A DNA stretch of 64,000 nt from a virus (IMGVR_UViG_3300021387_000661:192001-256000), one strand, 5' to 3'. Counted from the first letter of the stretch, positions 44,128 through 59,904 are shown. The notes: generated by a model not told the origin, from the letters alone. Made by a program: numbers and translations.

Positions 44128-44293
44128 GCCCTGGTGGTGGAATGGTAGACACGAGGGACTTAATTAGCAGAGTAAACTGTCTTAAAAAATCTTGTTTGGA
44201 AAATATAGGAACTTTGACAGGTTCAAATCCTGTTTCCAGACCAATCCCTTGGCCTGCAAGGCCTTGCGGGTTCGACTCCCGCCCGGGGCACCA
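44128..44293 (+). tRNA. tRNA-Leu(TAA) with 79-nt tRNA-like insertion (44164-44242)
   Basis: AGGGA-CT-TAA|insert|AA-TCCCT; long variable arm; encoded CCA. Confidence 0.85.
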
Positions 44294-44355
44294 ACATAGT
44301 TGATTCTGACTGTTGTCAGACTTGAGGTTAATGACAGGACCTTCAACTATTAAAT

Positions 44356-44434
44356 GCGGGTGTATCGCCACTGTCTTATACACAGTCATTAACAGCGTAA
44401 TTGGTGTATGGGGGTTCAAGTCCCTCCACCCGTA
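44356..44434 (+). tRNA. D-arm-less tRNA-Ile(TAT)-like
   Basis: GCGGGTG/CACCCGT acceptor, ACTGT-CT-TAT-AC-ACAGT, long variable region, T arm. Confidence 0.6.
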
Positions 44435-44447
44435 CAAGCTTATTTGA

Positions 44448-44625
44448 AACAGCACTGGTACAAGGATCCATACCAGTAAAGATGAGATGGTAGCGCTGAA
44501 GTCTACGAACCTTAACAGGAAGTATCCGGATTCAAACTCCTGTCCTGTGTTACGGAACCAGTCTGGGTCACCAGGGTTTAATTGGGATGGAAACACCCAA
44601 GGAAGAGAAACCACCTTATGCTGTT
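44448..44625 (+). ncRNA. Candidate structured ncRNA
   Basis: AACAGCA/TGCTGTT closing stem with internal hairpins (CTGGTA/TACCAG, TTGGG/CCCAA). Confidence 0.4.
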
Positions 44626-44629
44626 ATAT

Positions 44630-44701
44630 GCTTCCATAGGTCAACGGATAGACTGACTCTCCCCTAAAGAGTAGATACATGTTCAATTCATGTTGGGAGT
44701 A
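44630..44701 (+). tRNA. tRNA-Arg(CCT)
   Basis: ACTCT-CC-CCT-AA-AGAGT. Confidence 0.85.
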
Positions 44702-44713
44702 CAAAACATAAAT

Positions 44714-44787
44714 GGCCCCTTAGCTCAGCGGATCAGAGCAACAGCCTTCTAAGCTGTGGGTCCTGCGTTCGAATCGCAGAGGGGTCA
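44714..44787 (+). tRNA. tRNA-Arg(TCT)
   Basis: ACAGC-CT-TCT-AA-GCTGT. Confidence 0.95.
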
Positions 44788-44885
44788 CAAAAAAAGTTTA
44801 AAAGATAATGAGACAGTATAAACATAAACAGTAGTTGTGTTGGTATCATCCAGAAAGATGAGACCAACCAAGTCATATATGGAAA

Positions 44886-44960
44886 GGTCTCGTGGCGCAA
44901 CTGGATGAGCGCACCTGTCTTTTAAACAGGGTGTTATGGGTTCGAGTCCCATCGGGACCA
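44886..44960 (+). tRNA. tRNA-Lys(TTT)
   Basis: CCTGT-CT-TTT-AA-ACAGG. Confidence 0.92.
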
Positions 44961-44969
44961 CAAGGTATT

Positions 44970-45042
44970 GGCCTTGTAGCTTAGATGGTAGAGCACCACC
45001 CTTTTAAGGTGGGAGTCGTGGGTTCGAGCCCCACCGGGGTCA
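44970..45042 (+). tRNA. tRNA-Lys(TTT)
   Basis: CCACC-CT-TTT-AA-GGTGG. Confidence 0.92.
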
Positions 45043-45267
45043 CAAAGATTAAAGTTTGAAATATATGGGTGGCTTGCATGCAGTTCTTGATAAGTCAGAT
45101 ATAGTACTTACTGATACTGTCTTGAACCAGAGTAAAAAGACCGGTACCTGATTGCAATAAGTTCCCACCCACCCTTTACCTGACAGGTCGAGCGTGATAT
45201 GGTCGCCTGTATTCACCAGACGTGGAGAAGAGACATTGAAACTCTGTCAGGTTTTTAATAGATTATT

Positions 45268-45624
45268 ATGGAAAAGAAACCAAAGATAAAGTGGAAGAAT
45301 TTTAAAATCTGGATCAAAGACCAGTTCAAGAGGAAGACCTGGTTCAGAAACTTTTTCATCACTGGGAATGCCTGGGGAGGGTTCAGTATCAACTCTCACA
45401 TCAACCAACATACAGGTGAACCAAAGATAACATACAATCATCTTGAATCCGCCCAGAAGGCTGCTGACAAGATGGGACAGAAACACAACACACACTTCAG
45501 TGTTTACAAGTGTCTTTACTGTGATGGTTATCATATTGGAAAGAACAGGGAGAACAAGACAGATTATGACAAGAAGGTAGTTACAAATGTTGAAGTAAAA
45601 GACAAGACTTTAATACTTAAATAA
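45268..45624 (+). CDS. Hypothetical zinc-binding protein
   Basis: VYKCLYCDGYHIG. Confidence 0.65.
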   Translation: MEKKPKIKWKNFKIWIKDQFKRKTWFRNFFITGNAWGGFSINSHINQHTGEPKITYNHLESAQKAADKMGQKHNTHFSVYKCLYCDGYHIGKNRENKTDYDKKVVTNVEVKDKTLILK

Positions 45625-45625
45625 G

Positions 45626-46078
45626 ATGAACACACTTGAAAATACAATTCAGAAGGATCTGGTTCAGGCAATGAAGAACCATCAGGAACACACTGTTGCA
45701 GCATTGAGGTCTGTTAAGACTGCCATTATGGAAGTGAAGACCGCTGCCAATGGTAAGAAGGATTTGGAAGATGGTGACATTGTGAAGATCATCCAGAAGT
45801 TAGTTAAGCAAAGGAAGGAGAGTATGGACATCTATTCCCAGGCAGGTAGGCATGAACTTGCAGACAATGAGCAGCAGGAGATGTTTGTGTTGATGAACTA
45901 TCTTCCAAAGATGCTCACTGAATCAGAGGTGGAGGAAATTGTTGTGAAGACGATCGCAGACCTTGGTGCAACCTCAATGAAAGATATGGGAAAGGTGATG
46001 GGATTCATCAATAAGACTTATGCTGGACAGGTGGATGGTTCTATGGTATCAAGAATTGTTAAATCTAAATTAGGATAA
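45626..46078 (+). CDS. GatB/YqeY domain protein
   Basis: KQRKES...Y.QAGR.ELA..E, YLPKML, DMGKVMG. Confidence 0.92.
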   Translation: MNTLENTIQKDLVQAMKNHQEHTVAALRSVKTAIMEVKTAANGKKDLEDGDIVKIIQKLVKQRKESMDIYSQAGRHELADNEQQEMFVLMNYLPKMLTESEVEEIVVKTIADLGATSMKDMGKVMGFINKTYAGQVDGSMVSRIVKSKLG

Positions 46079-46079
46079 T

Positions 46080-46271
46080 ATGGCAAAGTTTGTTGTTTAT
46101 GCTCATGACAAGACTGATGTAGAATCAAATCTCATCTATGTATGTACCTGTGACACCAAAAATATGGCAAAGAGTATTACAAGTGCTATGAGGTTCAGGG
46201 ATTCCGGTGGAAGGAATGATGGGTCGGGTTTATATGATTATTATGTTAGAAAAGAAGATTGGATAGTATGA
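46080..46271 (+). CDS. Hypothetical protein
   Basis: ORF track. Confidence 0.55.
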   Translation: MAKFVVYAHDKTDVESNLIYVCTCDTKNMAKSITSAMRFRDSGGRNDGSGLYDYYVRKEDWIV

Positions 46272-46495
46272 AAACCTGGATTATAGTTTTAGCAATTGTA
46301 TTTGTTGTTTTAAAGTTAGTTCAGCGGTTTCTTGCAAACTATATCAGAAATGACAGATTGGAAAGTGTAAAATACTACTTTCTTGATGGTGCAACAACAC
46401 TTGGGGTGATACATGGACTTGTTTCTTTATTTTGTATATTGGTTGGTTGTACAGATTTGATTTTATTGTTTATTTATTTGTTGAATTTAGTATGA
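46268..46495 (+). CDS. Small membrane protein
   Basis: Two hydrophobic segments. Confidence 0.55.
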   Translation: MKTWIIVLAIVFVVLKLVQRFLANYIRNDRLESVKYYFLDGATTLGVIHGLVSLFCILVGCTDLILLFIYLLNLV

Positions 46496-46983
46496 AGAAT
46501 ATAGCATTGGTTGCCCATGATGGAAGAAAGAAAGAATTGATGGAGTGGGTAAGGTATAATTGGGAAACTCTTTCAAAGCATAATTTATATGCAACTGGTA
46601 CAACTGGAAAATTGATTAGTGGTATTGAAGTGGATCTTGGATTTGGTGGTGGAGAAGGAGTTTATAGGAGACAGATTGAGTATCCTTTGAGGAGTAAAGT
46701 AACATGTCTCAAATCTGGTCCACTTGGTGGAGATCAACAGATTGGAGCAATGATTGCAGAAGGAAAGATAGATGTATTGATATTTTTCTGTGACAATCTC
46801 ATTACACAAGGTCACCAGACAGATGTGTCTGCACTTACCAGACTTGCATCACTTTATAATATTGCATTTGCAACAAACAGGACAACTGCTGATATGATTC
46901 TTACATCACCATTGTTCAATGATGAAAATTATAAGATGATTGTTCCTGATGTGATTGAGAAATATAAAAACAGACAAATTTAA
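46492..46983 (+). CDS. mgsA: Methylglyoxal synthase
   Basis: IALVAHD..K, LYATGTTG, SGPLGGDQQIGA, H..DV.AL.R. Confidence 0.93.
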   Translation: MKNIALVAHDGRKKELMEWVRYNWETLSKHNLYATGTTGKLISGIEVDLGFGGGEGVYRRQIEYPLRSKVTCLKSGPLGGDQQIGAMIAEGKIDVLIFFCDNLITQGHQTDVSALTRLASLYNIAFATNRTTADMILTSPLFNDENYKMIVPDVIEKYKNRQI

Positions 46984-47081
46984 TAAAAACATAAATATTT
47001 TTATCTGGGATTTGGAAAATAAAATATTTTTTGTTATATTTGTATTGTTATTCAGAAAGAGTTCTTTGAATTTAGAAATAT

Positions 47082-47400
47082 ATAGGTCTTGTTGATGCTT
47101 TCAGGAAAGACTGTAGGACAAGGGTTCGAGTCCCTTCAGGTCCACAAATAAACACACTTAAGTCATCGGAGTACGCCTCTGTAATGATTGAGGAATTCAC
47201 TAAACGGTGTGGAAAATCAGGTTGAGTAGGCTTCGTATCTCAACCAACTTTGGGCCTGCCTGGTTTTGACTGCTTTTGAGTATGGAGAGTGGAGAGGTCT
47301 ATTGCCAATAACTGGCAAAAACAACGGTTTCTCTGTAAACTTTGGCCCTGTCGCACAGACAGCTACTCCAAAGGCTATGGTTGCTTTCGCTTAATTGCAG
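47082..47400 (+). ncRNA. ssrA: Circularly permuted (two-piece) tmRNA; tag (A)GKNNGFSVNFGPVAQTATPKAMVAFA*
   Basis: T arm and CAGGTCC-A (ends 47144) precede GGGCCTG-CCTGGTTTTGAC (47252); G3-U70 pair; ATAACT-GGC resume site at 47314; stop at 47394. Confidence 0.88.
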
Positions 47401-47505
47401 GCTTGAACATAGTAGATCTTTCACCAGGTGGATGATCCAGAGGGTTTCTCATTCCATCTTTCCAAATAAGATGGATACTTTGAAAGTTCTTTATAATAAA
47501 TATTT

Positions 47506-47681
47506 GGCCAGGTAGCTCAGCTGGTTTAGAGCAGCGGACTGTATAAGGAGTGGTTTACCGAAACAAACCAATCTGGTATAGTTTAATGGCAAAATGCCTC
47601 GGGTCGTAGATGATGGTGGTTCGATTCCACCTACCAGATCTAATCCGCGGGTCGTGGGTTCGAGTCCCTCCCTGGCCGCCA
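47506..47681 (+). tRNA. tRNA-Asn(GTT) with 98-nt tRNA-like insertion (47543-47640)
   Basis: GCGGA-CT-GT|insert|T-AA-TCCGC; G73 discriminator; CCA. Confidence 0.8.
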
Positions 47682-47683
47682 AA

Positions 47684-47763
47684 GTACATAGGATGTAAGT
47701 GCACACATATGTTGGGTTCGGGTATGATTAACCCACAGAGGTTTGAGTCCTCTCTATGTACCA
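47684..47763 (+). ncRNA. tRNA-like element (acceptor plus T arm, no canonical anticodon arm)
   Basis: GTACATAG/CTATGTAC; AGAGG-TTTGAGT-CCTCT. Confidence 0.55.
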
Positions 47764-47800
47764 AATATAAGTTCTTTGAAAAATAAAAACTTCATACAAT

Positions 47801-48071
47801 GGAGGAGTGGGAGAGTGGTTTATTCCAGCGGTCTTGTTAATTCGAGTGCTTCCAGAGGAATCTGGAAAGTAGAATTCCCCTAATTCGGTGGAACCTTAAC
47901 AGGTAATGCTGATGGTAATACCGAGCCAATGTTTAAAGACAGTGTGTAGAGACTTTACAGGGAACATCCAGAACGGATGAAGATAAAGTCCAGACCACAA
48001 TATGAAAGTAATGTGTGTAAGGAAAACCGCCGCTCCGAAAGGGGCCGTCGGTTCGAATCCGGCCTCCTCCG
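47801..48071 (+). tRNA. tRNA-Ser(TGA) interrupted by a group I intron
   Basis: GCGGT-CT-T|intron|GA-AA-ACCGC; long variable arm; G73. Confidence 0.88.
47836..48021 (+). mobile_element. Group I intron (186 nt, no ORF)
   Basis: Follows U and ends in G; P AATTCGGTGGAAC, Q AATACCGAGC, R GTGTAGAGACT, S AAGATAAAGTCC. Confidence 0.88.
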
Positions 48072-48259
48072 CTAAATATACAAATTTCAAAAAAGTTTGT
48101 TATATTTATTAAGGTTTTGTTATGTGTTTGTTTGTTTAAAGATTCATACCGCAACAATTAAAAGCTCAAACTGATAATTTGATTACTTTCTTTTGAATCT
48201 TGTTTTCTTTAACAAACATAAATTTAACCAGGCTTTTATAAACAATTAATAATTAAAGT

Positions 48260-48886
48260 ATGAAGAAATTTTTAGTATTTCTTATGAGTATTATGCTCAT
48301 GATTGGTGTGAGTGCATGTACTTGCTCCCAGCAGAAGAAAACTTCTGAACTAAAGGCTGGTGAACTGGTTGTTGAGAATGTCATCTCCCTTGACCGTCAG
48401 GCAATGAACCTTGCACATGGTGGTAATTACAGGTGGTTTGAGACTGGTGTTCAGCTCAAGAACTTCCTTGATGAGGAAAATGATGGTACCATTGATTTGG
48501 TTGTCAATGTTTTCCAGGTAGTTGAGGAGTATGATTCTACAAGTTTTGATACCTTTGTTTACAAGTATCAGCACTTCTCTGATGGTTCATTTAATGAGGA
48601 AGGTGTTCATGGTTTCTGGGTTGAAGATTACCCTCTTGAGAATGAAGCAATCAAGGTAACCTTCAAGGAAGCTTTTGAAAAGGTCCAGGAAGTTAATCTC
48701 CCTAAACCTCACACCCGTCAGGTAGTATTGAGGAAGCAGGTTGGTCCTGTTGAGGCAAATCCTCAGTGGATTTTTGGTAACCTCCATTCACAGATTTATG
48801 TTGATGCTGTGACTGGTGCAGTTTCAAAGGACAATCCTGCATTCAATGGTCTCAATCTTGGTACACCTCTTGGTGAATGGCCTTAA
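48260..48886 (+). CDS. Putative lipoprotein (PepSY-like C-terminus)
   Basis: MKKFLVFLMSIMLMIGVSAC lipobox; IYVDAVTGAV. Confidence 0.7.
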   Translation: MKKFLVFLMSIMLMIGVSACTCSQQKKTSELKAGELVVENVISLDRQAMNLAHGGNYRWFETGVQLKNFLDEENDGTIDLVVNVFQVVEEYDSTSFDTFVYKYQHFSDGSFNEEGVHGFWVEDYPLENEAIKVTFKEAFEKVQEVNLPKPHTRQVVLRKQVGPVEANPQWIFGNLHSQIYVDAVTGAVSKDNPAFNGLNLGTPLGEWP

Positions 48887-48967
48887 TAGAAATCGGTGAG
48901 GTAGTTAGTTTTGCACTCTCGTCATAAATAAAATGCAGACTTGGCAATCTGGAACAGACAGATATTA

Positions 48968-49092
48968 CTATGATGTGACAAGGAAGTGGAATACTTGCGC
49001 CACGAGATAATATCAGATGGAGGAAAGAGGAAGGGTTCTTCGTAAAAGTTGCCCAATAGGGAATGGAGGTTCGAGTCCTCCCATCATAGCCA
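48968..49092 (+). ncRNA. Enlarged tRNA-like element ending in CCA
   Basis: CTATGATG/CATCATAG; GGAGG-TTCGAGT-CCTCC. Confidence 0.55.
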
Positions 49093-49097
49093 AACAT

Positions 49098-49172
49098 TGC
49101 GGGGTAGACTGGAGAGGTTCCAGCCCGGTCTCATAAGCCGGTCCACGTGGGTTCGAATCCCACCCACCGCTA
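49098..49172 (+). tRNA. Initiator-type tRNA-Met(CAT)
   Basis: CCGGT-CT-CAT-AA-GCCGG; 1:72 mismatch. Confidence 0.75.
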
Positions 49173-49177
49173 CTAAA

Positions 49178-49226
49178 TGCCAGTATAAGACAGTATATAT
49201 GTAAGTTCAACTCTTACTATTGGCGC
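49178..49226 (+). ncRNA. tRNA minihelix (acceptor plus T arm only)
   Basis: GCCAGTA/TATTGGC; GTAAG-TTCAACT-CTTAC; 15-nt linker. Confidence 0.55.
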
Positions 49227-49324
49227 AAAAAAATACAAAATATTTTCATAAATATTTGGATATTTCAAATTTTTTTGTTATATTTGTATTGTTAAGTTCT
49301 TTGATAAATATTGTAAAAATATAA

Positions 49325-50170
49325 GGGTGGGTTTCTCATCCTTCCTGTATCCTTCGGGAGAAAGGAGAAAGATAACCAGTGAATACATAAGCTGGGAAAG
49401 TCAGTGTGGCGCAATCTTGCCCCTGGCGGAGGAGTTTTCCTCTCTACAAGAAAACCAAGGCAGTCAGCATATCCTGGAATGGCAGGACACTGTGAAAGGG
49501 ATATGCGGGGGTTCTTACCAAGTCTCCTTGAGTGGTAACACTGACAAGTGCTGTTTTGCTTCCAGACAAGAAGATTACCAGTCTTATGGTTTGGATGACC
49601 AAAGTTTATTGATGTCCAAAAGGAATTACCAGATTCCTCTAACAGGTGGTGCTGAGATCAGAAATGGTTGGATGTTAGAATGAGTAGAATGAGTAACACA
49701 GCGGTGTGTGAAAATAGAAAGGCGATGTATCTAACCCTCTCAAAAGGAGGCAGGATAGCAAGGGCAACCTCGTCTTTCAAATGGTAGAGTGCTAAATGAT
49801 TCATTAAAGATTATGACCAAAATGATCAATAAAAAATTATTAAGCAAGCAAAAGTGTTGCCCACACTACAGGACAATATGGTTATGCTTCTGTGATATGA
49901 AGCCTTATGGAACTCGCAAGGTGAAGTAAGAGTATTGTAAGTAGGGACAATGCAAGAGGAGGCATCCTCTTAACTCGGCAGAGGTCTTTGGCTTGAACAC
50001 ATCTATATAATGTAGTGTAGTGACTGTGGTAGTCTTGGTGGAAACACCATAAATCCATCCATATCCTCCTTACCAGTAGCGATGCTGGTGTGTATAAACT
50101 CTGGGCGACCAGGGCTTGTCCTGAAAGGGAAGAGAACAGGAGGCGATTAGGGTCAACACTCAGCCCCAAT
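49325..50170 (+). ncRNA. Giant structured ncRNA, GOLLD-like
   Basis: About 850 nt of GC-elevated, gene-free sequence after a promoter inside the tRNA array; many hairpins; ACAGGTGGTGCTG, GCAAAAGTG and 3' CTCAGCC motifs recalled from GOLLD-like RNAs (not verified). Confidence 0.55.
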
Positions 50171-50397
50171 CAAACAAAAATTTATTCAGTGTCAGTAACC
50201 AGTCTGGTATGGAAGAGCGAGACTTCCCCGAATAACAAAAGTCATTTCATAAAGGTACAGAACCTCTGCGAAATAGAACCACAAGGAGGGTTTTCCAAGG
50301 CCAGGGACTTGACTTGAAACATACTTTCTTGGGTTCTAAAGGAAGTTGAAGAGTGAGTTTGCATTCAGTCTATGAGTGGTTTTATCTCTTCATCCAT

Positions 50398-50472
50398 AGT
50401 GCGTTAGTTCAGCCTGGTTAGAATGCCACACTGTCACTGTGGAGGTCACGGGTCCGAATCCCGTACGCACTG
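50398..50472 (+). tRNA. tRNA-Asp(GTC)
   Basis: CCACA-CT-GTC-AC-TGTGG; G73. Confidence 0.92.
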
Positions 50473-50706
50473 CAAATGGTAAAGAACCATACCGCAACAT
50501 TTGAATGAAATACATTTTTGGGTTATGTAGCAATTTTGGTTCTTGTTTTTCCTTGTTTAGCAAAACAAGGTGGTGGAGTTGGGTGGAAACACTGTCCTCT
50601 GTGAGTGGTAATCTCACATAAATAACTTACCATTTATTTTGAAATTTTAATTTACATAAATATATTAGAAAGTAATTTACATAAATACTTTAAAAGAATA
50701 AAAATT

Positions 50707-50829
50707 ATGATGACATTGCATACACATATGGTATTTGCTGCTATTGCAGGTAAGCCAGGTTGCTACCGTTTTTGGGAACAACTCGGACAGAAGGGTGTGT
50801 GTATGTCATCTGAAAATGAAAAACAATAA
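50707..50829 (+). CDS. Leader peptide 2 (MMTLHTHMVFAAIAGKPGCYRFWEQLGQKGVCMSSENEKQ) of putative tRNA-array attenuator
   Basis: 40-codon ORF after tandem TTTACATAAATA; contains 19 of 20 amino acids. Confidence 0.7.
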   Translation: MMTLHTHMVFAAIAGKPGCYRFWEQLGQKGVCMSSENEKQ

Positions 50830-50923
50830 GTGGAGACCATTATAGGAGAAAGGTTAAAACTTAAACAAATATAGAAGAACGACATCTCACACAAATCACA
50901 AAAAGGTTTATGTGAGATTTTTT
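50709..50923 (+). promoter_or_regulatory. Attenuator 2: protector GATGACAT-T-GCATACA/TGTGTGT-ATGTCATC, antiterminator with GACATCTCACACA, terminator ATCTCACA...TGTGAGAT-TTTTT
   Basis: Mutually exclusive pairings; first tRNA begins about 10 nt downstream. Confidence 0.7.
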
Positions 50924-50932
50924 AATTTATAT

Positions 50933-51008
50933 TGGGTAGTGCGGTAGTTGGTCACCGGCTGCATTTGGGATGCAGACATTCACGCAGGTTCGAGTCCTGT
51001 CTACCCAA
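50933..51008 (+). tRNA. tRNA-Pro(TGG)
   Basis: CTGCA-TT-TGG-GA-TGCAG. Confidence 0.85.
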
Positions 51009-51018
51009 CAAAGTGAAT

Positions 51019-53037: not shown

Positions 53038-53111
53038 CTATGGTATCATATAGAGGTTAGTATGGCGGTCATTCAGTGCTGCAACAGAGGTTCGATTCCT
53101 CTTACCATAGC
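53038..53111 (+). tRNA. Atypical tRNA with 8-nt anticodon loop (identity unclear)
   Basis: TATGGTA/TACCATA; GCGGT-CATTCAGT-GCTGC; good D and T arms. Confidence 0.5.
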
Positions 53112-53118
53112 AACATTT

Positions 53119-53210
53119 GGGTAGGTAACGGCGCTGGACTGTAAATCCAGTCTGAACACAAATTGTCGTATTGGCCTTGCAGTAAGGGGGTTCGAGTCCC
53201 TCCCTACCCA
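53119..53210 (+). tRNA. D-arm-less tRNA-Tyr(GTA)-like
   Basis: GGGTAGG/CCTACCC; CTGGA-CT-GTA-AA-TCCAG; long variable region. Confidence 0.6.
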
Positions 53211-53217
53211 CACAAAT

Positions 53218-53291
53218 GCGGAGTTAGTTCAACGGTAGAATGTCAGCCTTCCAAGCTGAATATGAGGGTTCGATTCCCTTACTCCGCTCCA
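53218..53291 (+). tRNA. tRNA-Gly(TCC)
   Basis: TCAGC-CT-TCC-AA-GCTGA; CCA. Confidence 0.95.
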
Positions 53292-53376
53292 AACTGTGGG
53301 TGTAGTGTAATATTATAGATTCAGCACACAGGGGATACCCTGGAATGATGGTATGAAATCCATCCACTCATAACAT

Positions 53377-53451
53377 ACCGATGTAGCTCAGTTGGTGGAG
53401 AGCGACAGATTCATATCCTGTAGGTCATTGGTTCGAACCCAATCATCGGTA
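53377..53451 (+). tRNA. tRNA-Met/Ile2(CAT)
   Basis: ACAGA-TT-CAT-AT-CCTGT. Confidence 0.8.
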
Positions 53452-53464
53452 CATATAATTAAAA

Positions 53465-53635
53465 ATGATATTATGGATAACTGTGGGGCTAAAAGAGTAT
53501 CTGTTTAATGAGTGGAAATATAATGTACACAAAAGATACTTGAAATACTTTGATGAATGGTATGACAATCTTCTGGATTCCCAGAAAGAATTTTACAAGA
53601 GTTGGATGGAAGGGTATATGAGTCCATATCATTAG
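53465..53635 (+). CDS. Small hypothetical protein (56 aa)
   Basis: Manual translation MILWITVGLKEYLFNEWKYN...; below the ORF-track cutoff. Confidence 0.5.
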   Translation: MILWITVGLKEYLFNEWKYNVHKRYLKYFDEWYDNLLDSQKEFYKSWMEGYMSPYH

Positions 53636-53664
53636 GTCTTTGAAATGTTGATTATGAATTATAT

Positions 53665-53755
53665 AGGTCGGTGGCCGAGTGGTTGAAGGCGGCGGTCTCC
53701 AAAACCGTTAGGATATTTTGAAAAATCCTCGAGGGTTCGAATCCTTCCCGGCCTG
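53665..53755 (+). tRNA. tRNA-Trp(CCA) with long variable arm
   Basis: GCGGT-CT-CCA-AA-ACCGT; AGGAT/ATCCT extra arm; G73. Confidence 0.8.
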
Positions 53756-53763
53756 CTTAAGAT

Positions 53764-53835
53764 TGAGGTATGGTGTAATGGCCAGCACCTTGGATTTTGG
53801 TTCCAATAGTCCAGGTTCGAATCCTGGTACCTCAA
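53764..53835 (+). tRNA. tRNA-Gln(TTG)
   Basis: TTGGA-TT-TTG-GT-TCCAA. Confidence 0.93.
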
Positions 53836-53843
53836 CAAAAAAT

Positions 53844-53917
53844 GTCGGGTTGGCCGAGCGGTCAGGTCCTGGTCTGCAAAACCAGTTAGATTGGTTCGAC
53901 TCCAATACCCGACTCCA
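53844..53917 (+). tRNA. tRNA-Cys(GCA)
   Basis: CTGGT-CT-GCA-AA-ACCAG; U73, CCA. Confidence 0.93.
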
Positions 53918-53920
53918 TTT

Positions 53921-53992
53921 GCCCCTGTAGTGTAATGGATCGCACACAGCACTACGGATGCTTTAGAGAGGGTTCGAGTCCTTCCAGGGGTA
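53921..53992 (+). tRNA. tRNA-Arg(ACG)
   Basis: AGCA-CT-ACG-GA-TGCT. Confidence 0.88.
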
Positions 53993-54113
53993 CAAAATTA
54001 TAAATATAATAGATGGTCTTTGACGAAAGAATCGTATCGCAGTTGAGCTTTGTCCTCACTGACAGAAACGTAAGTCTGGGGTGTACTACAAGCCTGTGAT
54101 TGTAGTATTTTTT

Positions 54114-54185
54114 GCGGCATTCGTATAATGGTTATTATACCAGCTTGCCATGCTGGGGACGGGAGTTCGATTCTCCCATGCCGCT
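54114..54185 (+). tRNA. tRNA-Gly(GCC)
   Basis: CCAGC-TT-GCC-AT-GCTGG. Confidence 0.92.
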
Positions 54186-54193
54186 CTCAATAT

Positions 54194-54270
54194 GGTGACT
54201 GTGGCCGAGTGGTTTAGGCGCAACACTGTGGATGTTGTTTACGTCAGTTCGAGTCTGACCAGTCACCCCA
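54194..54270 (+). tRNA. tRNA-His(GTG)
   Basis: G-1/C73; CAACA-CT-GTG-GA-TGTTG; CCA. Confidence 0.93.
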
Positions 54271-54281
54271 AAAATAAAGTT

Positions 54282-54662
54282 ATGGAAAAGGTAGTAAGAT
54301 TTTTTAAACAAGATAATAAGTGGTATGCAGATATTCCAAACCACACTCTTGAAGAGAATGAGATGGTAATGGGTGCAGATATTGCTCTTGAGTATCTTGC
54401 AGAAGAGAGGAAAGAGTTACACATCACATTCACAGATGAGAATCCAGGATGGAATGTTCCTCTGGCACTCACTCTGAAAGATCATGATGATGAGGGTGGA
54501 TACTATGATGTATCAGGAATTCTCTTTATGGATTTTATGCTCACTTATGGTAAAGAGTTCATTGGAGTCAAACCACAGGTTTGGATTTGTAATGTTACAC
54601 ATGATGTATTTGGTGAACATCCAGAACACATTTACATCACAAAGATTGAATCAAAACATTAG
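54282..54662 (+). CDS. Hypothetical protein (DUF6717-like)
   Basis: Start re-placed at MEKVVRFF; WY.D, MVMGAD, WICNV...FG..P..IYI. Confidence 0.7.
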   Translation: MEKVVRFFKQDNKWYADIPNHTLEENEMVMGADIALEYLAEERKELHITFTDENPGWNVPLALTLKDHDDEGGYYDVSGILFMDFMLTYGKEFIGVKPQVWICNVTHDVFGEHPEHIYITKIESKH

Positions 54663-54664
54663 TT

Positions 54665-54988
54665 ATGGACAAAGATTTTAAGAAGAGGTTCTTAATGAAC
54701 CGTGATGAGACAGGTAGGTTCATTGTCAAGTCAATGAAGACTGGTAAATCCTATTATGTTGAAGCAATTGATGGTGACGAAAGGACTATCTGGGGAGATG
54801 TGGATCCAGTAACAAAAAAGTTGACAGGTAGTTATGGTGACAAGTACAAGGGAAGTATCAGACCTGAACAGTCACTTATTACCAATGAGAATGGGTTTGA
54901 CAAGATTCATACTCTTGGTCCTGGGGAATCACCATTGGATTATATTAACAGGATTGATGATGAGTACTTTGAAAAGATGAGTAAATAG
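54665..54988 (+). CDS. Hypothetical phage protein
   Basis: ORF track. Confidence 0.7.
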   Translation: MDKDFKKRFLMNRDETGRFIVKSMKTGKSYYVEAIDGDERTIWGDVDPVTKKLTGSYGDKYKGSIRPEQSLITNENGFDKIHTLGPGESPLDYINRIDDEYFEKMSK

Positions 54989-54996
54989 TTTTTTGG

Positions 54997-55078
54997 GGGA
55001 GAGTCGCATAGTGGCAATTGCAAGGGACTGTAAATCCCTCGCCTTCGGGCTTCAGAGGTTCGAGTCCTCTCTCTCCCA
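54997..55078 (+). tRNA. tRNA-Tyr(GTA)
   Basis: AGGGA-CT-GTA-AA-TCCCT; variable arm. Confidence 0.93.
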
Positions 55079-55193
55079 CAGCCTATCAACCAAGTTGTTG
55101 AAAAGGGTAACGGATGCGCAGCGATTGCGGATCTTGCAAGTTTTTCGCCAGGGTTTCCTTGGTCTCTTTGAGATGAATAAATCTTGGATTTAT

Positions 55194-55275
55194 GGGGGTG
55201 TGGTGGAATGTAGACACCCCAGACTTAGGATCTGGTGCCAGTAATGGCGTGAGGGTTCGAGTCCCTCCATCCCCA
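55194..55275 (+). tRNA. tRNA-Leu(TAG)
   Basis: CCAGA-CT-TAG-GA-TCTGG. Confidence 0.9.
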
Positions 55276-55410
55276 CACTGACACTACTCTATGAGTAGAT
55301 GTCTTGGTTGGTCACAATACTGTAATTGTGATAGTCCTCTGGGACTTAAAAGAGTTGCAGTGATGCAATCTGTCAAGGTCAGTCTGGAACCAGTTAATCC
55401 AGACATTTAT

Positions 55411-55493
55411 GCAGCAGTGGTGGAATGGTAGACACGCTACTTTGAGGGGGTAGTCTGGGCAACTGGGTGTGAGTTCGAGTCTCACCTGCCGCA
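55411..55493 (+). tRNA. tRNA-Leu(GAG)
   Basis: CTACT-TT-GAG-GG-GGTAG. Confidence 0.88.
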
Positions 55494-55501
55494 CAAAACA
55501 T

Positions 55502-55574
55502 AGCGGTATAGCGCAATTGATAGAGCATCAGATTCTGGCTCTGAAGGTTGGGAGTTTGAACCTCTCTACCGCTA
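55502..55574 (+). tRNA. tRNA-Gln(CTG)
   Basis: TCAGA-TT-CTG-GC-TCTGA. Confidence 0.8.
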
Positions 55575-55676
55575 CAAACAAAAAAGGGTGGGTCAACCAG
55601 GTAAAGGCAGGGTAAGTCTCTGGTTCTTCTCTGATGATGGCGCAAGTAGTCAGAGTTTCTTAAATTACCCATATAT

Positions 55677-55751
55677 GGGTGTGTAACTCAGTTGGTACAG
55701 AGTACCTGTCTGATACACAGGAAGTCGATGGTTCAAGTCCATCCACACCCA
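55677..55751 (+). tRNA. tRNA-Ile(GAT)
   Basis: CCTGT-CT-GAT-AC-ACAGG. Confidence 0.92.
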
Positions 55752-55760
55752 CACAAATAT

Positions 55761-55835
55761 GGTCCTGTCGTCTAGTCTGGCCAAGGACATCACCCTCTCA
55801 AGGTGGAGACCCGGGTTCAAATCCCAGTGGGACTA
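55761..55835 (+). tRNA. tRNA-Glu(CTC)
   Basis: TCACC-CT-CTC-AA-GGTGG. Confidence 0.88.
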
Positions 55836-55917
55836 CAAAAAATATTTCAAATTTATTTTGAAATTAAAAATATTTTTGTTATATTTGTATTACAAAAAAG
55901 TTCATTGACATATAATA

Positions 55918-56014
55918 AGTGATGACTACATAGACATAATCAATGCCACAATGTTGAGCTCTTGAGAATATGGCAGATAAAAGTCTTTAGACAAACTCAA
56001 CTATGGTCATCACT
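55918..56014 (+). ncRNA. Candidate pseudoknotted ncRNA
   Basis: AGTGATGAC/GTCATCACT closing stem; TGCCA/TGGCA crossed by GTTGAG/CTCAAC. Confidence 0.45.
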
Positions 56015-56021
56015 AAATTAT

Positions 56022-56394
56022 AAGAACAGCAAGATGGGGTACTGATAATCTTCACACAAGGAGTTCTAGATTGAGGGTGTGTGAAGGAAAGGTATAAATA
56101 TTGTTAAAGAGGAATACCTGACCCCTGTCCAATTGTGGCAAGTGGAGAAATATGGATTGTCTATCTGGGGTTCTCCTGTCCTCTGACAACAGTGACTACG
56201 GAAGTCTGTTGTGTTCTTTTATTATATTGAGAATCCAAGGTGGGTGCTTTTATAGAATACTCTCTTAAAATGGATAGAGAGGAAAGAAGTGTAATATAGG
56301 TGAAGTTTCTTAGTTGTTACACATCCTGGTGATGGGGAATGTCATCACGGTGAGACTTCAAGAAGGTGACTACGGAAATCCTTTTGTTCTCAAT
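56022..56394 (+). ncRNA. Two tandem related structured RNAs sharing GTGACTACGGAA
   Basis: Units 56022-56218 and 56226-56394, each closed by a terminal stem. Confidence 0.55.
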
Positions 56395-56400
56395 TTCTAT

Positions 56401-56483
56401 GCCCGAGTGGGGGAATGGTAGACCCAGCAGACTCAAAATCTGCCGTCTGCAAAGACGTGCGAGTTCGACTCTCGCCTCGGGCA
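56401..56483 (+). tRNA. tRNA-Leu(CAA)
   Basis: GCAGA-CT-CAA-AA-TCTGC. Confidence 0.93.
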
Positions 56484-56839
56484 CAACAGTCCATCCAGTA
56501 TTGAGGATAAGGTAAACTTGAAAGTACAGGAAAATTCACCTTGTTCAGCGGTTGCCGATACGCAATATATAAGGACCACACAAGTAGTACATTGCAGTTG
56601 AAACATTACCCGACATAGAGACTACATAAGAAATGTGCTTTATTGGATTTGAGACTGTAAAAGAAGGGTGAAGTACAAACCCTGTTCAGTTATGATGGAA
56701 TAACCAAAGTCCAATGGCAGGGAGGGATATAATGGTGTGAAGTTGCTATTCACCATATTTAAAATTAAAAAAAGATAAAACAAATTTGGATAATTCAAAA
56801 AAAGTTGTTATCTTTGTATTGAAAGTTCATTGATATTTG

Positions 56840-57441
56840 TTGTTTTATATTTGGAAAGTTTCTGACCTGGATTAAACCCTCATTATTGGTAGGGGAATTA
56901 AGGGACTAAACCCAACCACAAGATAATGTCCTGATGTGACAGAAGTCCTGTAGTTTTTATCTCTGTGGGTAGGTTGGCTTTGTATAATAATACCACAGCA
57001 GAAATAAGTTTCTGGTCTTAAACAATCCATACGTTTTATGATGGGGTTCGTAAACCTAACCATTCGCATCTTTTGGAAAGATGTGTTACCGTGCCGTGAA
57101 ATTCGGAGGAGTCAATTCCACAGACCAACAGAAAGAATGTACACATTGCTTACAGTTGGTCAGTGCTGTGCCCACCCAGCGAGGTTGTTATGCAGTTTAT
57201 CAACAGGGTGTGGGAAAAGTGTATGAGAGAAGACTGAATGTTCCTGGACAATGGTGTTGGAATCTGGGATAAAACAAAGAGTAGGTTGGATCAAGAAGAG
57301 AACTGGTAGGAGTTACTGTGACTTTCTGATGTTTGTCCATCAGAAAACCAGGGAAGATAATGGACACCAATATGGCAAGAGATTTTTGATAGGGATTCAC
57401 AAATCAGTGAGGTGGCCATGCACCTATGACAACACTGATTT
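56840..57441 (+). ncRNA. Candidate large (~600 nt) ncRNA
   Basis: GC-elevated, gene-free stretch after a promoter; several hairpins. Confidence 0.35.
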
Positions 57442-57447
57442 ACTTAT

Positions 57448-57519
57448 GGCGGGTTCGTCTATCGGTGAGGACACCAGATTTTCATTCTGGGAAGAGGAGT
57501 TCGATTCTCCTACCCGCTA
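57448..57519 (+). tRNA. tRNA-Glu(TTC)
   Basis: CCAGA-TT-TTC-AT-TCTGG. Confidence 0.93.
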
Positions 57520-57639
57520 CAAATAAAAGTTGAAATGGAAGAAGAGTAACATTCCATATCCACTTAATGATTGAGTTTGTAAGAAAGTACTTTGAGACTG
57601 ATGCTTCCTACTGTACAGATTTCAACTTTTTTAGAAAAT

Positions 57640-57742
57640 TGCGGGGGAGTGAAACGGATAGGAACTCCTGAAAGGGTTGTTCAAAAATCATATCAGGCCC
57701 ATAACCTGATGATACTGGCTTCGACTGCCAGACCCGCTACCA
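57640..57742 (+). tRNA. Initiator-type tRNA-Met(CAT) with expanded D loop
   Basis: TCAGG-CC-CAT-AA-CCTGA; GTGA/TCAT D stem enclosing ~35 nt; CCA. Confidence 0.7.
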
Positions 57743-57769
57743 AGTATTAATTTAAAAATAGGTTTAACA

Positions 57770-57910
57770 ATGGCAGTTATTAAGACAGGTTCAACCTCAA
57801 GGAGAGAGGTGAAACACAAGAAGCGCCCTGGTATTGTCTCCAAGTGTAAGACTTCAAGGAACAAGAATTCCAAGCACTATGTGAAACCTTACAGAGGTCA
57901 GGGCCGATAA
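57770..57910 (+). CDS. Small basic protein ending YRGQGR (46 aa)
   Basis: Manual translation MAVIKTGSTSRREVKHKKRPGIVSKCKTSRNKNSKHYVKPYRGQGR. Confidence 0.7.
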   Translation: MAVIKTGSTSRREVKHKKRPGIVSKCKTSRNKNSKHYVKPYRGQGR

Positions 57911-58052
57911 AAATACAGGTTAGAAGGCGATGGTTATTCCATAATGGTTGTGTACAGACCGGTGGAGACCTTCTGTGAAAGTCAGACGTGAAAGTAAACG
58001 AAATGAGTTCTCAGGGCAGCTGTGCCGAAGGATTATAGAAAACAGCACTTAT

Positions 58053-58128
58053 CGGGGTGTAGCTCAGTTGGTAGAGCGGGTGGTTTGGGACCATCAGGTC
58101 GCACGTTCGAGTCGTGTCACCCCGACCA
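58053..58128 (+). tRNA. tRNA-Pro(TGG)
   Basis: GGTGG-TT-TGG-GA-CCATC; CCA. Confidence 0.95.
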
Positions 58129-58134
58129 AAATAT

Positions 58135-58317
58135 GGCCTGGTGGGCAAATGGTAAAGTCACCCCTGAATGATGGGGGAGGTGTGTAATAAGGGTTACCTG
58201 ACAGTGCGGAGTAACAGTGTCGCGAACTGCCAAAGGTTGGGTACAAGAATAAGCACAGGTCTGGAGGTATTCGCGATGCCAAAGGATGAATGCGGGTTCA
58301 ACTCCCGTTCGGGGCCA
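58135..58317 (+). ncRNA. Enlarged tRNA-like element (~110-nt insert in the variable region)
   Basis: GGCC/GGCC acceptor end, D arm with GG, CCCCT/GGGGG arm, GCGGG-TTCAACT-CCCGT. Confidence 0.55.
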
Positions 58318-58325
58318 CAAATTTT

Positions 58326-58400
58326 GGGAGGTTAGCTCAGTTGGGTCAGAGCATCTGGTTTACACCCAGAGGGTCATAGGTTCGAATCCTATATCTCCCA
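58326..58400 (+). tRNA. tRNA-Val(TAC)
   Basis: TCTGG-TT-TAC-AC-CCAGA. Confidence 0.95.
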
Positions 58401-58462
58401 CAAACAACTTTGAGTATGACAGTATATGATACATGTTAAAGGCTGGAGGAAAGAAGTTGTCA

Positions 58463-58561
58463 GAACCTATAGTGGTGAAGCAAAGGTGAGATTCCTTTGT
58501 GGAGAGTGGTCAAAACAATACCAGACGGTAGAGATGGGGAGTTCGAGTCTCCTTAGGTTCG
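58463..58561 (+). ncRNA. tRNA-like element
   Basis: GAACCTA/TAGGTTC; GGGAG-TTCGAGT-CTCCT. Confidence 0.5.
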
Positions 58562-58690
58562 CAAAGAGTGCAGTGTCAATCTCCCGTTGGGGCTGGGGTG
58601 AGACCTCTTAAAATAGAGTGAAAAAATGAATTAGCTCCACCAATACAGTTATTACTAATCTGTGAAAGTAATCGTCTTGAGTTGACGGTG

Positions 58691-58737
58691 ATGGTTGAGT
58701 TTGAGGAAACGTTCCAGGTTCGAGTCCTGCAACCATA
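58691..58737 (+). ncRNA. tRNA minihelix
   Basis: ATGGTTG/CAACCAT; CAGG-TTCGAGT-CCTG. Confidence 0.5.
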
Positions 58738-58750
58738 ACAAAAAATACTT

Positions 58751-58905
58751 GCCGAGGTAGCTTTAATGGTAGAGCACCTGACTTCTACAGATTTATCCAC
58801 TGTGACGGATATTGGGTAATATGGGAGAAGAAGTCAACTTTTACGTCCGAAGCGTAAGTTATCCACGTAATCAGGGGGTTGCAGGTTCGACTCCTGTCCT
58901 CGGCT
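58751..58905 (+). tRNA. tRNA-Thr(TGT) with 82-nt tRNA-like insertion (58785-58866)
   Basis: CCTGA-CT-T|insert|GT-AA-TCAGG (a CGT reading is possible if the junction is shifted). Confidence 0.85.
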
Positions 58906-58960
58906 CAAACAAAGATTTTAGCCTGTTAGTTAAAATCTATATAAAATAACAATCAAATTT

Positions 58961-59581
58961 ATGTCAAAATTTATGAAAGAAGAAGACCGTGAGCAGCAGA
59001 TAAATGATTTGATGCTTGCAATTAGAAGGAACACACAGGGTTCCAAATGTATTGATGTTTTTGAAAATCTCTTGAGAGAGATTCCAGACAAGAATGTTGT
59101 AGATACAGTTATTGTTGATACACACCGTTTTATTACAGAGTTTTCCAGGTTGTGTAAAGATGTTGACAATATGAAAAATTTGGATTATATTGCCAGGATT
59201 CTTACATATGATTTCATTCAACCAAAAAGATATTTTTCAAAATCAAGGAAGAATGCACAATTGTATTTGATGATGAGTGATATGCTCACCACTAAATACA
59301 CACATCCAATCTTTGATGTTGAGAAAAAGATTCAACTTCCAAATGAAAATTTCATTGGGGATATTTATCATAAGGAGATTTTCTCTGCGAATGATATCGT
59401 AGAAGTATTTAAATACTTTGGAGATCTTTCTGGTTTGTCTGTTGAGAAAGTGAAGGAGAAGATGGAACTTGCAAGAAAGGTTGTCCTCCTTTACAATTAC
59501 CAACCTGCCATTGTGAAGGCACTCATCCAGACAAAGAGAAGGGGACTTAATCTGGATAAGAACTCAAAAATGTTTAAATAA
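58961..59581 (+). CDS. Hypothetical protein flanked by an inverted repeat
   Basis: ORF track; lies between the two Thr genes. Confidence 0.7.
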   Translation: MSKFMKEEDREQQINDLMLAIRRNTQGSKCIDVFENLLREIPDKNVVDTVIVDTHRFITEFSRLCKDVDNMKNLDYIARILTYDFIQPKRYFSKSRKNAQLYLMMSDMLTTKYTHPIFDVEKKIQLPNENFIGDIYHKEIFSANDIVEVFKYFGDLSGLSVEKVKEKMELARKVVLLYNYQPAIVKALIQTKRRGLNLDKNSKMFK

Positions 59582-59654
59582 TTAACAAACAATCAACTAA
59601 CAGGCAAAATTTTTGTTATATTTACATAAATAACCTAATGTTATTTGGAATAAT

Positions 59655-59727
59655 GGGGGATTAGCTTAGTTGGTAGAGCGCAGCCTTTGCACGGCTGAGG
59701 TCAGGGGTTCGAATCCCCTATCCTCCA
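59655..59727 (+). tRNA. tRNA-Ala(TGC)
   Basis: CAGCC-TT-TGC-AC-GGCTG; G3-U70. Confidence 0.95.
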
Positions 59728-59752
59728 CAAAATTGAGTTCTTTATATTCTAT

Positions 59753-59904
59753 GCCGGAGTAGCTTTAATGGTAGAGCATCTGACTTCTACAGAGTGGTTT
59801 CTGAAATAAACCTTGGGTAGAATGGGAGAATGATTATACAAACGTCCGAAGCGTTATCTACTCACGTAATCAGAGGGTTGTCGGTCCGAATCCGGCCTCC
59901 GGCT
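59753..59904 (+). tRNA. tRNA-Thr(TGT) with 79-nt tRNA-like insertion (59787-59865)
   Basis: TCTGA-CT-T|insert|GT-AA-TCAGA. Confidence 0.85.

Follow-up and report, generated by a model that had tools for sequence, protein, structure and literature searches.

The closest described counterparts of the introns analyzed here are found in Lak megaphages, in which 'enigmatic' tRNA introns that 'may encode a tRNA' have been reported (Devoto et al., 2019; PMC6784885, Table S6 and Figure 4), a description repeated in a 2026 jumbo-phage survey (PMC13037316). Lak introns are located in the anticodon loop of genes that include Thr-TGT, Gly-TCC, Phe-GAA and one called Tyr in that work, are ~80–115 nt long and contain neither an ORF nor an Rfam match, and intron-less Lak alleles exist that shift the predicted boundary by one base (PMC6784885). 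The introns of the present locus share with them the anticodon-loop site, the short length without ORF or known family, the tRNA-like element and the existence of precise intron-less alleles in related phages; this kind of intron was already published for Lak in 2019 and is thus not new. Read by eye, the Lak Table S6 sequences start with N-U-A; their hairpin lies 3–4 nt in and is followed by an A-rich linker and then by a tRNA-like domain, with a stem and a C at the end, and the leader of the Lak Phe intron is nearly the same as that of the Leu intron described here. However, the phage studied here has a GC content of ~35% (26% in Lak) and frames that read as open with the standard code, its leaders are mostly pseudoknots whereas Lak leaders are plain hairpins, and the tRNA-like core of its two Thr introns is of a reduced type, class A (GGGAGAA and a UCCGAAG T loop). 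Moreover, the published work does not provide architecture, covariation or mechanism for these introns.

Group I introns (RF00028), the classic type for bacterial and phage tRNA introns, also interrupt bacterial-type tRNA genes at the anticodon loop and show presence/absence polymorphism, and a true example interrupts tRNA-Ser(TGA) of the same array. In contrast to these, the inserts described here lack the core and the terminal G and are about a third to a half the size, and self-splicing is not expected. In T4, Pnkp and Rnl1 mend a tRNA whose anticodon loop has been cut, the break being damage caused by a host nuclease. Such healing and sealing by a phage kinase/phosphatase and an RNA ligase resembles the last step proposed here, which would however follow a programmed excision and would involve an Rnl5-like ligase with an N-terminal OB domain instead of Rnl1, and a calcineurin-like phosphoesterase. 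In mascRNA and viral tRNA-like structures, an embedded tRNA-shaped module directs RNase P and RNase Z cuts at both of its ends. These substrates release the module and their flanks are not rejoined, whereas in the present case a functional tRNA requires ligation of the flanks.

The window, i.e., the whole stretch of 64,000 nt analyzed, is part of a 344,746-bp (~345-kb) virus record from a gut phage with ~40 tRNA genes. Four of these, Leu-TAA, Asn-GTT and two Thr-TGT genes, are split within the anticodon loop by inserts of 79, 98 and 79–82 nt, respectively (Rfam tRNA and ARAGORN; Table 1). An Rfam tRNA match extends across each of the four genes (44128–44290, 47506–47678, 58751–58905 and 59753–59904), ARAGORN with introns allowed returns the insert lengths given in Table 1, and excision of these inserts produces canonical tRNA-Leu(taa), tRNA-Asn(gtt) and two tRNA-Thr(tgt). 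Both tools, together with the uninterrupted alleles described below, bear out the interruptions at the positions given by the original prediction. Its observation that the only Asn, Thr and Leu-TAA genes of the window are the interrupted ones extends to the complete 345-kb genome, in which ARAGORN finds no other gene of these types. The T loop of the Thr2 3' exon reads TCCGAAT, and TTCGAAT in three orthologues.

Table 1. Interrupted tRNA genes, their introns and candidate processing genes (window positions).
Feature	Position	Strand	Remarks
P-loop kinase (AAA_33), candidate polynucleotide 5'-kinase	18117..18623	+	Pfam E 9e-16
Calcineurin-like metallophosphoesterase, candidate 3'-end healer	18888..19475	+	Metallophos_2 E 2e-5, below curated cut-off
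RNA ligase-like, Rnl5-like, candidate sealing enzyme	19813..21249	+	PF21189 E 4e-12, PF09414 E 1e-4
CCA-adding-type nucleotidyltransferase	24207..25625	+	PF01743, 89.8 bits, G000:216282-216674 = window 24282-24674
tRNA-Leu(TAA) 5' exon	44128..44163	+	Ends at position 36; Rfam tRNA; spliced form is Leu(taa) by ARAGORN
Leu intron, 79 nt	44164..44242	+	Leader 44164-44193, inner domain 44194-44241, terminal C 44242
tRNA-Leu(TAA) 3' exon	44243..44290	+	Followed by encoded CCA at 44291-44293
tRNA-Asn(GTT) 5' exon	47506..47542	+	Ends at position 35
Asn intron, 98 nt	47543..47640	+	Pseudoknot leader 47543-47570, inner tRNA 47572-47639, C74-equivalent 47640
tRNA-Asn(GTT) 3' exon	47641..47678	+	Rfam tRNA; ARAGORN on spliced form
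tRNA-Thr(TGT) copy 1 (Thr1) 5' exon	58751..58784	+	Ends at position 34
Thr1 intron, 82 nt, class A	58785..58866	+	Pseudoknot leader 58785-58812, terminal C 58866
tRNA-Thr(TGT) copy 1 3' exon	58867..58905	+	Rfam tRNA; ARAGORN on spliced form
tRNA-Thr(TGT) copy 2 (Thr2) 5' exon	59753..59786	+	Rfam tRNA; ARAGORN on spliced form
Thr2 intron, 79 nt, class A	59787..59865	+	Leader 59787-59813, terminal C 59865
tRNA-Thr(TGT) copy 2 3' exon	59866..59904	+	Rfam tRNA; ARAGORN on spliced form

The intron boundaries are fixed by alleles that lack the insert. Spliced Thr1 is identical over 73 of 73 nucleotides to an uninterrupted gene present in three other viral contigs (L189, L192 and L195), the uninterrupted Asn gene of a 412-kb contig (L225) differs from spliced Asn solely by two D-loop changes, and the exact anticodon arm predicted for spliced Leu is present in 54 uninterrupted phage Leu-TAA genes. 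The flanking bases differ at every junction, so each boundary has only one possible placement. Removing the insert up to and including one C after the inner stem, the rule by which a 7-nt loop had been predicted to be restored, gives canonical tRNAs with junctions that match the uninterrupted alleles. Across Thr, Val, Arg, Gly, Asn, Pro, Phe, Met, Lys and Leu genes the insertion point ranges from 33/34 to 37/38 while the ends of the intron remain constant, and therefore it is the intron that defines its own ends. The inserts are true intervening sequences of the 'tRNA-in-tRNA' type, as in Lak and other huge phages.

All four inserts contain an 8-bp closing stem, a T-arm-like hairpin and a single terminal C. 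Closing stem and T stem form a stack of ~13 bp that is followed by the invariant C. The inner domain of the Leu intron is minimal, comprising the 8-bp stem and a T arm whose loop reads TTCAAAT, and has a weak match to Rfam tRNA-Sec (18.5 bits), while the Asn intron carries an element that matches the Rfam tRNA model (RF00005) with 44.8 bits and an E-value of 4.9e-9 (gathering score, 29); A47571, just 5' of this inner tRNA, pairs with the discriminator position T47639. In Thr1 the closing stem pairs 58813–58820 with 58858–58865 around an interior composed of AUGGGAGAA, a variable hairpin and ACG-UCCGAAG-CGU, and in Thr2 it pairs 59814–59821 with 59857–59864; model R1 scores these introns at 86.8 and 86.3 bits, respectively. 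Most inner domains lack a usable anticodon arm. The terminal C of the inserts matches C74 of ordinary phage tRNA genes: a C follows N73 in all 34 ordinary tRNA genes of the window, mostly without CCA, and in 904 of the 931 tRNA genes on the other viral loci that were retrieved. The presence of a CCA-adding-type enzyme (Table 1) fits tRNA genes that encode N73-C74 only. The shared plan of a 27–30-nt leader, acceptor-like 8-bp stem on a T arm and one C that had been proposed from the four genes is real and recurs widely: the same family comprises at least 26 further introns, located in viral and metagenome contigs. Among 16 class A relatives, 85% of the cells in the helices are paired, compared with 32–42% when the partners are slid, and double changes occur at 17 of the 22 pairs; the covariation supports all predicted helices of the cassette. 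Near-identical orthologues of the Thr2 intron occur in three contigs (L163, L167 and L170), one of them with a pairing-preserving change in the stem.

Removal of these introns is most likely protein-dependent, and we infer every enzymatic step of it. In the model that we favor, tentatively, the cell's tRNA end-processing enzymes would recognize the inner tRNA-like domain and cut there, after which a cassette of kinase, phosphoesterase and Rnl5-like ligase would seal the exons. An RNase Z-type 3'-end endonuclease would generate the 3' splice site by cutting behind the invariant C, which is the first base left unpaired past the 13-bp stack, and RNase P would probably release the inner domain on its 5' side. 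The 5' exon would be set free by a second cut where the leader begins, the leader probably being the signal for the nuclease. The tRNA halves would remain paired through the stems of the outer tRNA; the phage kinase and phosphoesterase would, where necessary, heal their ends, and the RNA ligase would finally join them. Cutting by a tRNA-recognizing nuclease would fit the observation that the terminal C corresponds to the C74 by which each ordinary tRNA of the array is followed. The usual RNase Z cut is located behind N73; a cut after C74 would depend on the extra N-1:N73 pair shifting the site. The phage contains neither an RNase Z-like domain (PF12706) nor the splicing-endonuclease domain tRNA_int_endo (PF01974), the latter being found in control archaea, and host enzymes would therefore have to act. 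The kinase, phosphoesterase and ligase genes that had been predicted do exist and are encoded together, as indicated by Pfam matches (Table 1), and we infer that they are tied to intron removal. The phosphoesterase has no match among solved structures, and the ligase combines its OB domain with a nucleotidyltransferase domain and weakly matches the Naegleria RNA ligase. Ligase orthologues are present in intron-bearing records that are at least 60% complete, and full-length ones in three of three intron-bearing records at least 90% complete versus one of 12 without a detected intron, a comparison confounded by phage relatedness; phages in which no intron was detected can also contain shorter ORFs that resemble RNA ligases.

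An alternative, which we consider unlikely, is that a small catalytic RNA of a new type, formed by the intron or by its leader, cleaves one or both junctions, leaving a 2',3'-cyclic phosphate and a 5'-OH that host RtcB would join or the phage cassette would heal and seal, or that this RNA splices itself. In favor of this, the leader is in most introns a conserved H-type pseudoknot in which an S1 of 3–4 bp is interleaved with an S2 of 5 bp (88% paired versus 25–40% in the comparison, 28 sequences); the leader hairpin of the original prediction is in fact this pseudoknot, and the Leu leader is a plain hairpin. The leader length is confined to 26–30 nt, and U2, A3 and an A after S1 are invariant and unpaired, bases that could equally mark a catalytic RNA. 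Model R2 scores the leaders at 17.5 (Leu), 30.2 (Asn), 39.1 (Thr1) and 28.2 bits (Thr2). Splice sites that depend on the intron rather than on the tRNA would also suit a ribozyme, as would a kinase and phosphoesterase cassette adequate for ribozyme-type ends and the finding of the leader in phage tRNA arrays rich in self-cleaving ribozymes (RAGATH-1 hammerhead; twister-P1 below threshold). However, the leader of Lak and of the Leu intron of the window is only a 4–5-bp hairpin (CAG/CUG in Leu) with an A-rich linker, too simple for a known active site, and the Rfam models of hammerhead, twister, pistol, hatchet and HDV do not match the inserts; theta (minimal HDV-like) ribozymes, which may not be in Rfam, were checked by eye only. 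Protein recognition, moreover, better explains the tRNA-like domain and the C74 rule. We know of no self-splicing RNA under ~140 nt.

That no splicing occurs at all, either because a mobile leader-plus-tRNA cassette disabled these tRNAs or because it is the tRNA halves and the inner tRNA-like RNA that serve as products, seems improbable. The cassette does occur free-standing, close relatives differ in the presence of the intron, the T loop of Thr2 is odd and the available RNA contigs showed no spliced RNA. Nevertheless, exons remain 100% identical where the introns have diverged to ~70% or have been replaced. Thr1 exons are identical or near-identical around three introns, one of 82 nt, one of 73 nt (~70% identical to the first) and a 112-nt class B intron; this constancy around differing introns indicates that the exons are under selection and that the intron must come out. 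Likewise, insertions are limited to a five-position stretch of the anticodon loop with the 7-nt loop always restored, the interrupted genes are the sole Asn, Thr and Leu-TAA ones among the ~40, and an anticodon arm that could be used is missing from most inner domains.

Archaeal/eukaryal-style introns, cut at a bulge-helix-bulge by a splicing endonuclease, would share the anticodon-loop location and joining by a protein ligase, but are very improbable here: the phage lacks the endonuclease domain, no 4-bp helix between two 3-nt bulges was seen when the junctions were read by eye, and insertion positions are mostly other than 37/38. To our knowledge, this type of endonuclease does not occur in bacteria. 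Degenerate or minimal group I introns are least credible, despite the bona fide example in the same array, since narrow Rfam searches that detect this Ser intron (42.2 bits) give no match to RF00028 at E≤10, or to any other known intron or ribozyme family, in the Thr1, Leu and Asn inserts, in agreement with the original prediction, the inserts measure only 79–98 nt, and C instead of the omega G is the last base of the four inserts and of every relative examined.

Returning to removal by end-processing enzymes, the same leader immediately precedes ordinary, free-standing tRNAs of other phages, and the cassette is therefore a leader-plus-tRNA unit. We suggest, more speculatively than the order of cuts outlined above, that these introns may represent a third tRNA splicing route, used by phages of bacteria and neither self-splicing nor dependent on a bulge-helix-bulge endonuclease, in which end-trimming enzymes would excise a mini-tRNA, the small pseudoknot leader would mark the other cut and a phage RNA-repair ligase would rejoin the halves, and that the leader-plus-tRNA cassette, free-standing or nested, may move as a unit from one tRNA gene to another.

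All of the ~40 tRNA genes of the phage, together with one tmRNA and one GOLLD-like RNA, lie within the window (bases 192001-256000) of a virus record of 344,746 bp (~94% complete, ~35% G+C). Four of these tRNA genes are interrupted: the Rfam tRNA model aligns to each across a long insert, and ARAGORN, set to accept introns, returns inserts of 79, 98, 82 and 79 nt for the Leu, Asn, Thr1 and Thr2 genes, respectively. Excision at exactly the boundaries given in the original prediction yields canonical Leu(taa), Asn(gtt) and two Thr(tgt) tRNAs, and its claim that the only Asn, Thr and Leu-TAA genes are the interrupted ones extends to the whole genome, in which ARAGORN finds no other. Uninterrupted tRNA-Thr genes in three other viral contigs have 73/73 identity to spliced Thr1. 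A 412-kb contig, whose ligase shares 83% identity with that of this phage, has an Asn gene without an intron, distinguished from spliced Asn by two D-loop changes only, and the predicted spliced Leu anticodon arm is present in 54 uninterrupted phage Leu genes. Because the bases flanking each junction differ, each of the four boundaries is unique. The predicted junctions are fixed by comparison, beyond folding alone. The T loop of the second Thr gene (TCCGAAT; TTCGAAT in three near-identical orthologues) alters the near-universal U55, and this copy may therefore be impaired.

Coordinates of the introns and of other features observed (window numbering unless a locus is named)
Feature	Coordinates	Description
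Leu intron	44164-44242	
Asn intron	47543-47640	
Thr1 intron	58785-58866	
Thr2 intron	59787-59865	
Second Thr gene, 3' exon	59866-59904	Altered T loop
tRNA-Ser(TGA)	47801-48072	Fifth interrupted gene, 186-nt insert
tmRNA	47053-47485	Just upstream of interrupted Asn gene; permuted per ARAGORN; tag GKNNGFSVNFGPVAQTATPKAMVAFA
GOLLD-like RNA	49717-50166	Mid tRNA array; 87.6 bits (below gathering score, 150), E 6e-22
Pair of odd tRNAs	53665-53756, 53119-53210	One a 92-nt gene with long extra arm (class II body), anticodon CCA; the other a 92-nt tRNA-like, 37 bits, anticodon-loop GTA
YqeY-like protein	45626-46078	E 2e-46; encoded within tRNA array
DUF3575 protein		59830-60888; downstream of Thr2
tRNA genes with C after discriminator	43758-63110	Also in viral loci fetched
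~110-nt element plus leader	L041:1130-1273, L095:620-763, L134:6120-6265, L074:4400-4569	In other phages

Several neighbouring elements accompany the interrupted genes. In a narrow search, the tRNA-Ser insert aligns to the whole of the Rfam group I intron model (42.2 bits, gathering score 50, E 1e-9). The Rfam permuted-tmRNA match is below threshold, and the GTA tRNA-like gene has a poor D arm as well as a long extra arm. RNA-run contigs from two likely source samples cover 49374-50167, around the GOLLD-like RNA, at 100% identity, and sub-threshold GOLLD matches of similar kind occur in two of five related records. DUF3575 is a Bacteroidota outer-membrane family, and its presence points, if weakly, to the host.

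Contigs of four metatranscriptome runs, two of them from likely source samples, were compared with positions 43700-60200. No spliced RNA is seen, none of the joints listed falling at a predicted splice junction; the result is neutral on splicing, as these contigs have hardly any cover of the tRNAs, and the two same-sample runs have zero cover of the Thr region. The single joint close to Leu (44147 to 44265) misfits the intron and resembles a tRNA from a different organism.

The inserts belong to a larger family. Pattern scans and two covariance models, one of them of the leader, detect 26 or more additional introns on contigs of viral and metagenome origin, hosted by genes for Thr, Val, Arg-CCT, Arg-TCT, Gly, Asn, Pro, Phe, Met/Ile-CAT and Lys. 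The single plan first proposed for the four inserts is shared by every member, each consisting of a leader, a closing stem with a T-arm-like hairpin, and a C. The leader has 26-30 nt and starts with N-U-A. In the Leu intron it is a plain hairpin plus A-rich linker; in most members, what was originally described as a hairpin is an H-type pseudoknot, in which a stem S1 (C-R-G paired with C-Y-G) is interleaved with a 5-bp stem S2. Over 28 sequences, the leader pairing holds in 88% of cells vs 25-40% with slid partners, and the S1 variants CAG/CUG, CGG/CCG, CUG/CAG and AGG/CCU are all found. The closing stem is stacked on the T-arm-like hairpin, ~13 bp together, and encloses either of two interiors. 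That of class B is an almost complete cloverleaf, the inner element of the Asn intron scoring 44.8 bits as a tRNA in Rfam, and that of class A, to which both Thr introns belong, is a reduced core made of AUGGGAGAA, a variable hairpin and ACG-UCCGAAG-CGU. Class-A pairing holds in 85% of cells vs 32-42% when slid, with double changes in 17 of 22 pairs. The terminal C is single and invariant in every family member. Run over the window, the leader model ranks these four introns above every other match, Leu being weak (17.5 bits, E 0.28). A leader-pattern scan of viral contigs gave ~9 real cases among 140 matches, the rest mostly chance, and a loose home-made pseudoknot scan, with no more matches than in shuffled sequence, was dropped. 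Among 185,579 prokaryote genomes, the class-A pattern has 17 matches, about the chance expectation, with none inside a tRNA; no cellular copy of the class-A intron is seen at the sensitivity of this search.

Several features bear on how such introns might be removed. The insertion site varies from 33/34 to 37/38 and the intron ends are constant, so the signals that set the boundaries lie in the intron itself. The Thr1 gene occurs with three different introns (82 nt; 73 nt, ~70% identical; and a 112-nt class-B form) within identical or 97%-identical exons. That the exons are kept around differing introns indicates selection on them and argues against pseudogenes. In the introns, the base 5' of the closing stem (N-1) pairs with the discriminator position (N73), which leaves the C as the first base past the 13-bp stack to be unpaired. 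This terminal C is not peculiar to introns: a C follows the discriminator in all 34 ordinary tRNA genes of the window (C-A-A in 18, not CCA) and in 904 of 931 tRNA genes of the other viral loci fetched. Nearly all of these phage tRNA genes have the C and lack a full CCA, a rule of which we know of no description; demands of RNase P or of 3' trimming, combined with a CCA-adding enzyme, may underlie it, and the phage does encode an enzyme of the CCA-adding type. In other phages, this leader is also found immediately before ordinary free-standing tRNAs, which makes the intron a leader-plus-tRNA cassette placed inside a second tRNA. As the interrupted genes differ among close relatives, gain or loss of such cassettes occurs. 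Upstream of free-standing leaders lies an element of ~110 nt that is conserved and covaries, with the motif order AAATTCTAA...TAGTAGGAG...GGAGTAGCTAATCCAAAT...TTGTAAAATCC, with the leader pseudoknot at its end and a normal tRNA directly after. It has no Rfam match, and a hatchet-like reading was discarded as lacking Rfam support. Two of the loci (L122 and L134) contain hammerhead, twister-P1 and RAGATH-12-like matches, the last two below threshold.

We tentatively favour, at somewhat less than even confidence, an excision in which tRNA end-processing acts on the inner tRNA-like domain, combined with a leader-directed 5' cut and sealing by a ligase. The cut after the terminal C would create the 3' splice site, assuming a shifted RNase Z site, RNase P is predicted to cut on the 5' flank of the closing stem, the 5' junction would need a separate cut directed by the leader, and the ligase would then seal the anticodon loop. 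Candidate enzymes encoded in the window are a kinase of the AAA_33 family (18117-18623), a phosphoesterase of calcineurin-like type (18888-19475) and an RNA ligase-like protein (19813-21249) that has an OB domain at its N terminus and whose closest solved structure is the Naegleria Rnl5 ligase (weak, E 0.004). Full-length orthologues of this ligase occur in all intron-bearing records at least 90% complete (this phage, G002 and G024) and in only one of 12 equally complete records without a detected intron, a comparison confounded by relatedness; shorter ligase-like ORFs exist elsewhere too. RtcB was not found in the intron-bearing phages tested, and EndA and RNase Z-like domains are absent from the phage, so the endonuclease would be host-derived or unrecognised.

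A small catalytic RNA is a less likely alternative, against which speaks that leaders in the Leu intron and in the introns of the published Lak megaphages are hairpins only. Narrow Rfam searches, repeated on the Thr1, Leu and Asn inserts because the wide (16-kb) search is less sensitive, having overlooked the tRNA-Ser group I intron, match them to no intron or ribozyme family. A hammerhead topology built from the anticodon stem, leader hairpin and closing stem misfits the core sequences, an HDV-like leader fold would leave no room for P3 or P4, pairings of the first intron bases with exon 2 or of GGGAGAA with the end of exon 1 are not conserved across members, and GOLLD RNA as an intron partner was dropped, being in only two of five intron-bearing records.

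The window introns belong to a known but unexplained kind. "Enigmatic introns" without Rfam match, for which intron-less alleles exist, were described in Lak phage tRNAs, that of Thr-TGT being one that "may encode a tRNA" (Devoto et al., 2019; PMC6784885), and a 2026 jumbo-phage survey repeats the observation (PMC13037316). Read by the boundary rule used here, the Lak intron sequences have a plan identical to that of the window introns. No mechanism for Lak-type tRNA introns was found in the literature searched. New here, as far as found, are the pseudoknot leader, the 13-bp-plus-C (C74) rule, the variable insertion site, the free-standing cassette form and the exact junction proof for this phage. 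To our knowledge, bacterial-type tRNA introns of known mechanism are all self-splicing group I introns.

The window offers a test set of four introns in two structural classes, with exact junctions from uninterrupted alleles, a covariation-backed structure, defined mutational targets (the terminal C, the N-1:N73 pair, and leader stems S1 and S2) and a candidate heal-and-seal cassette encoded in the same genome. These interrupted tRNA genes are missed or mislabelled by standard bacterial tRNA callers (ARAGORN labels the Leu gene as Val and the Asn gene as Ser), which skews phage tRNA inventories and the codon-supply arguments drawn from them. A widespread, ORF-less intron of 70-115 nt, lacking a ribozyme core and carried by huge phages in tRNA genes of many identities, implies an undefined splicing route.
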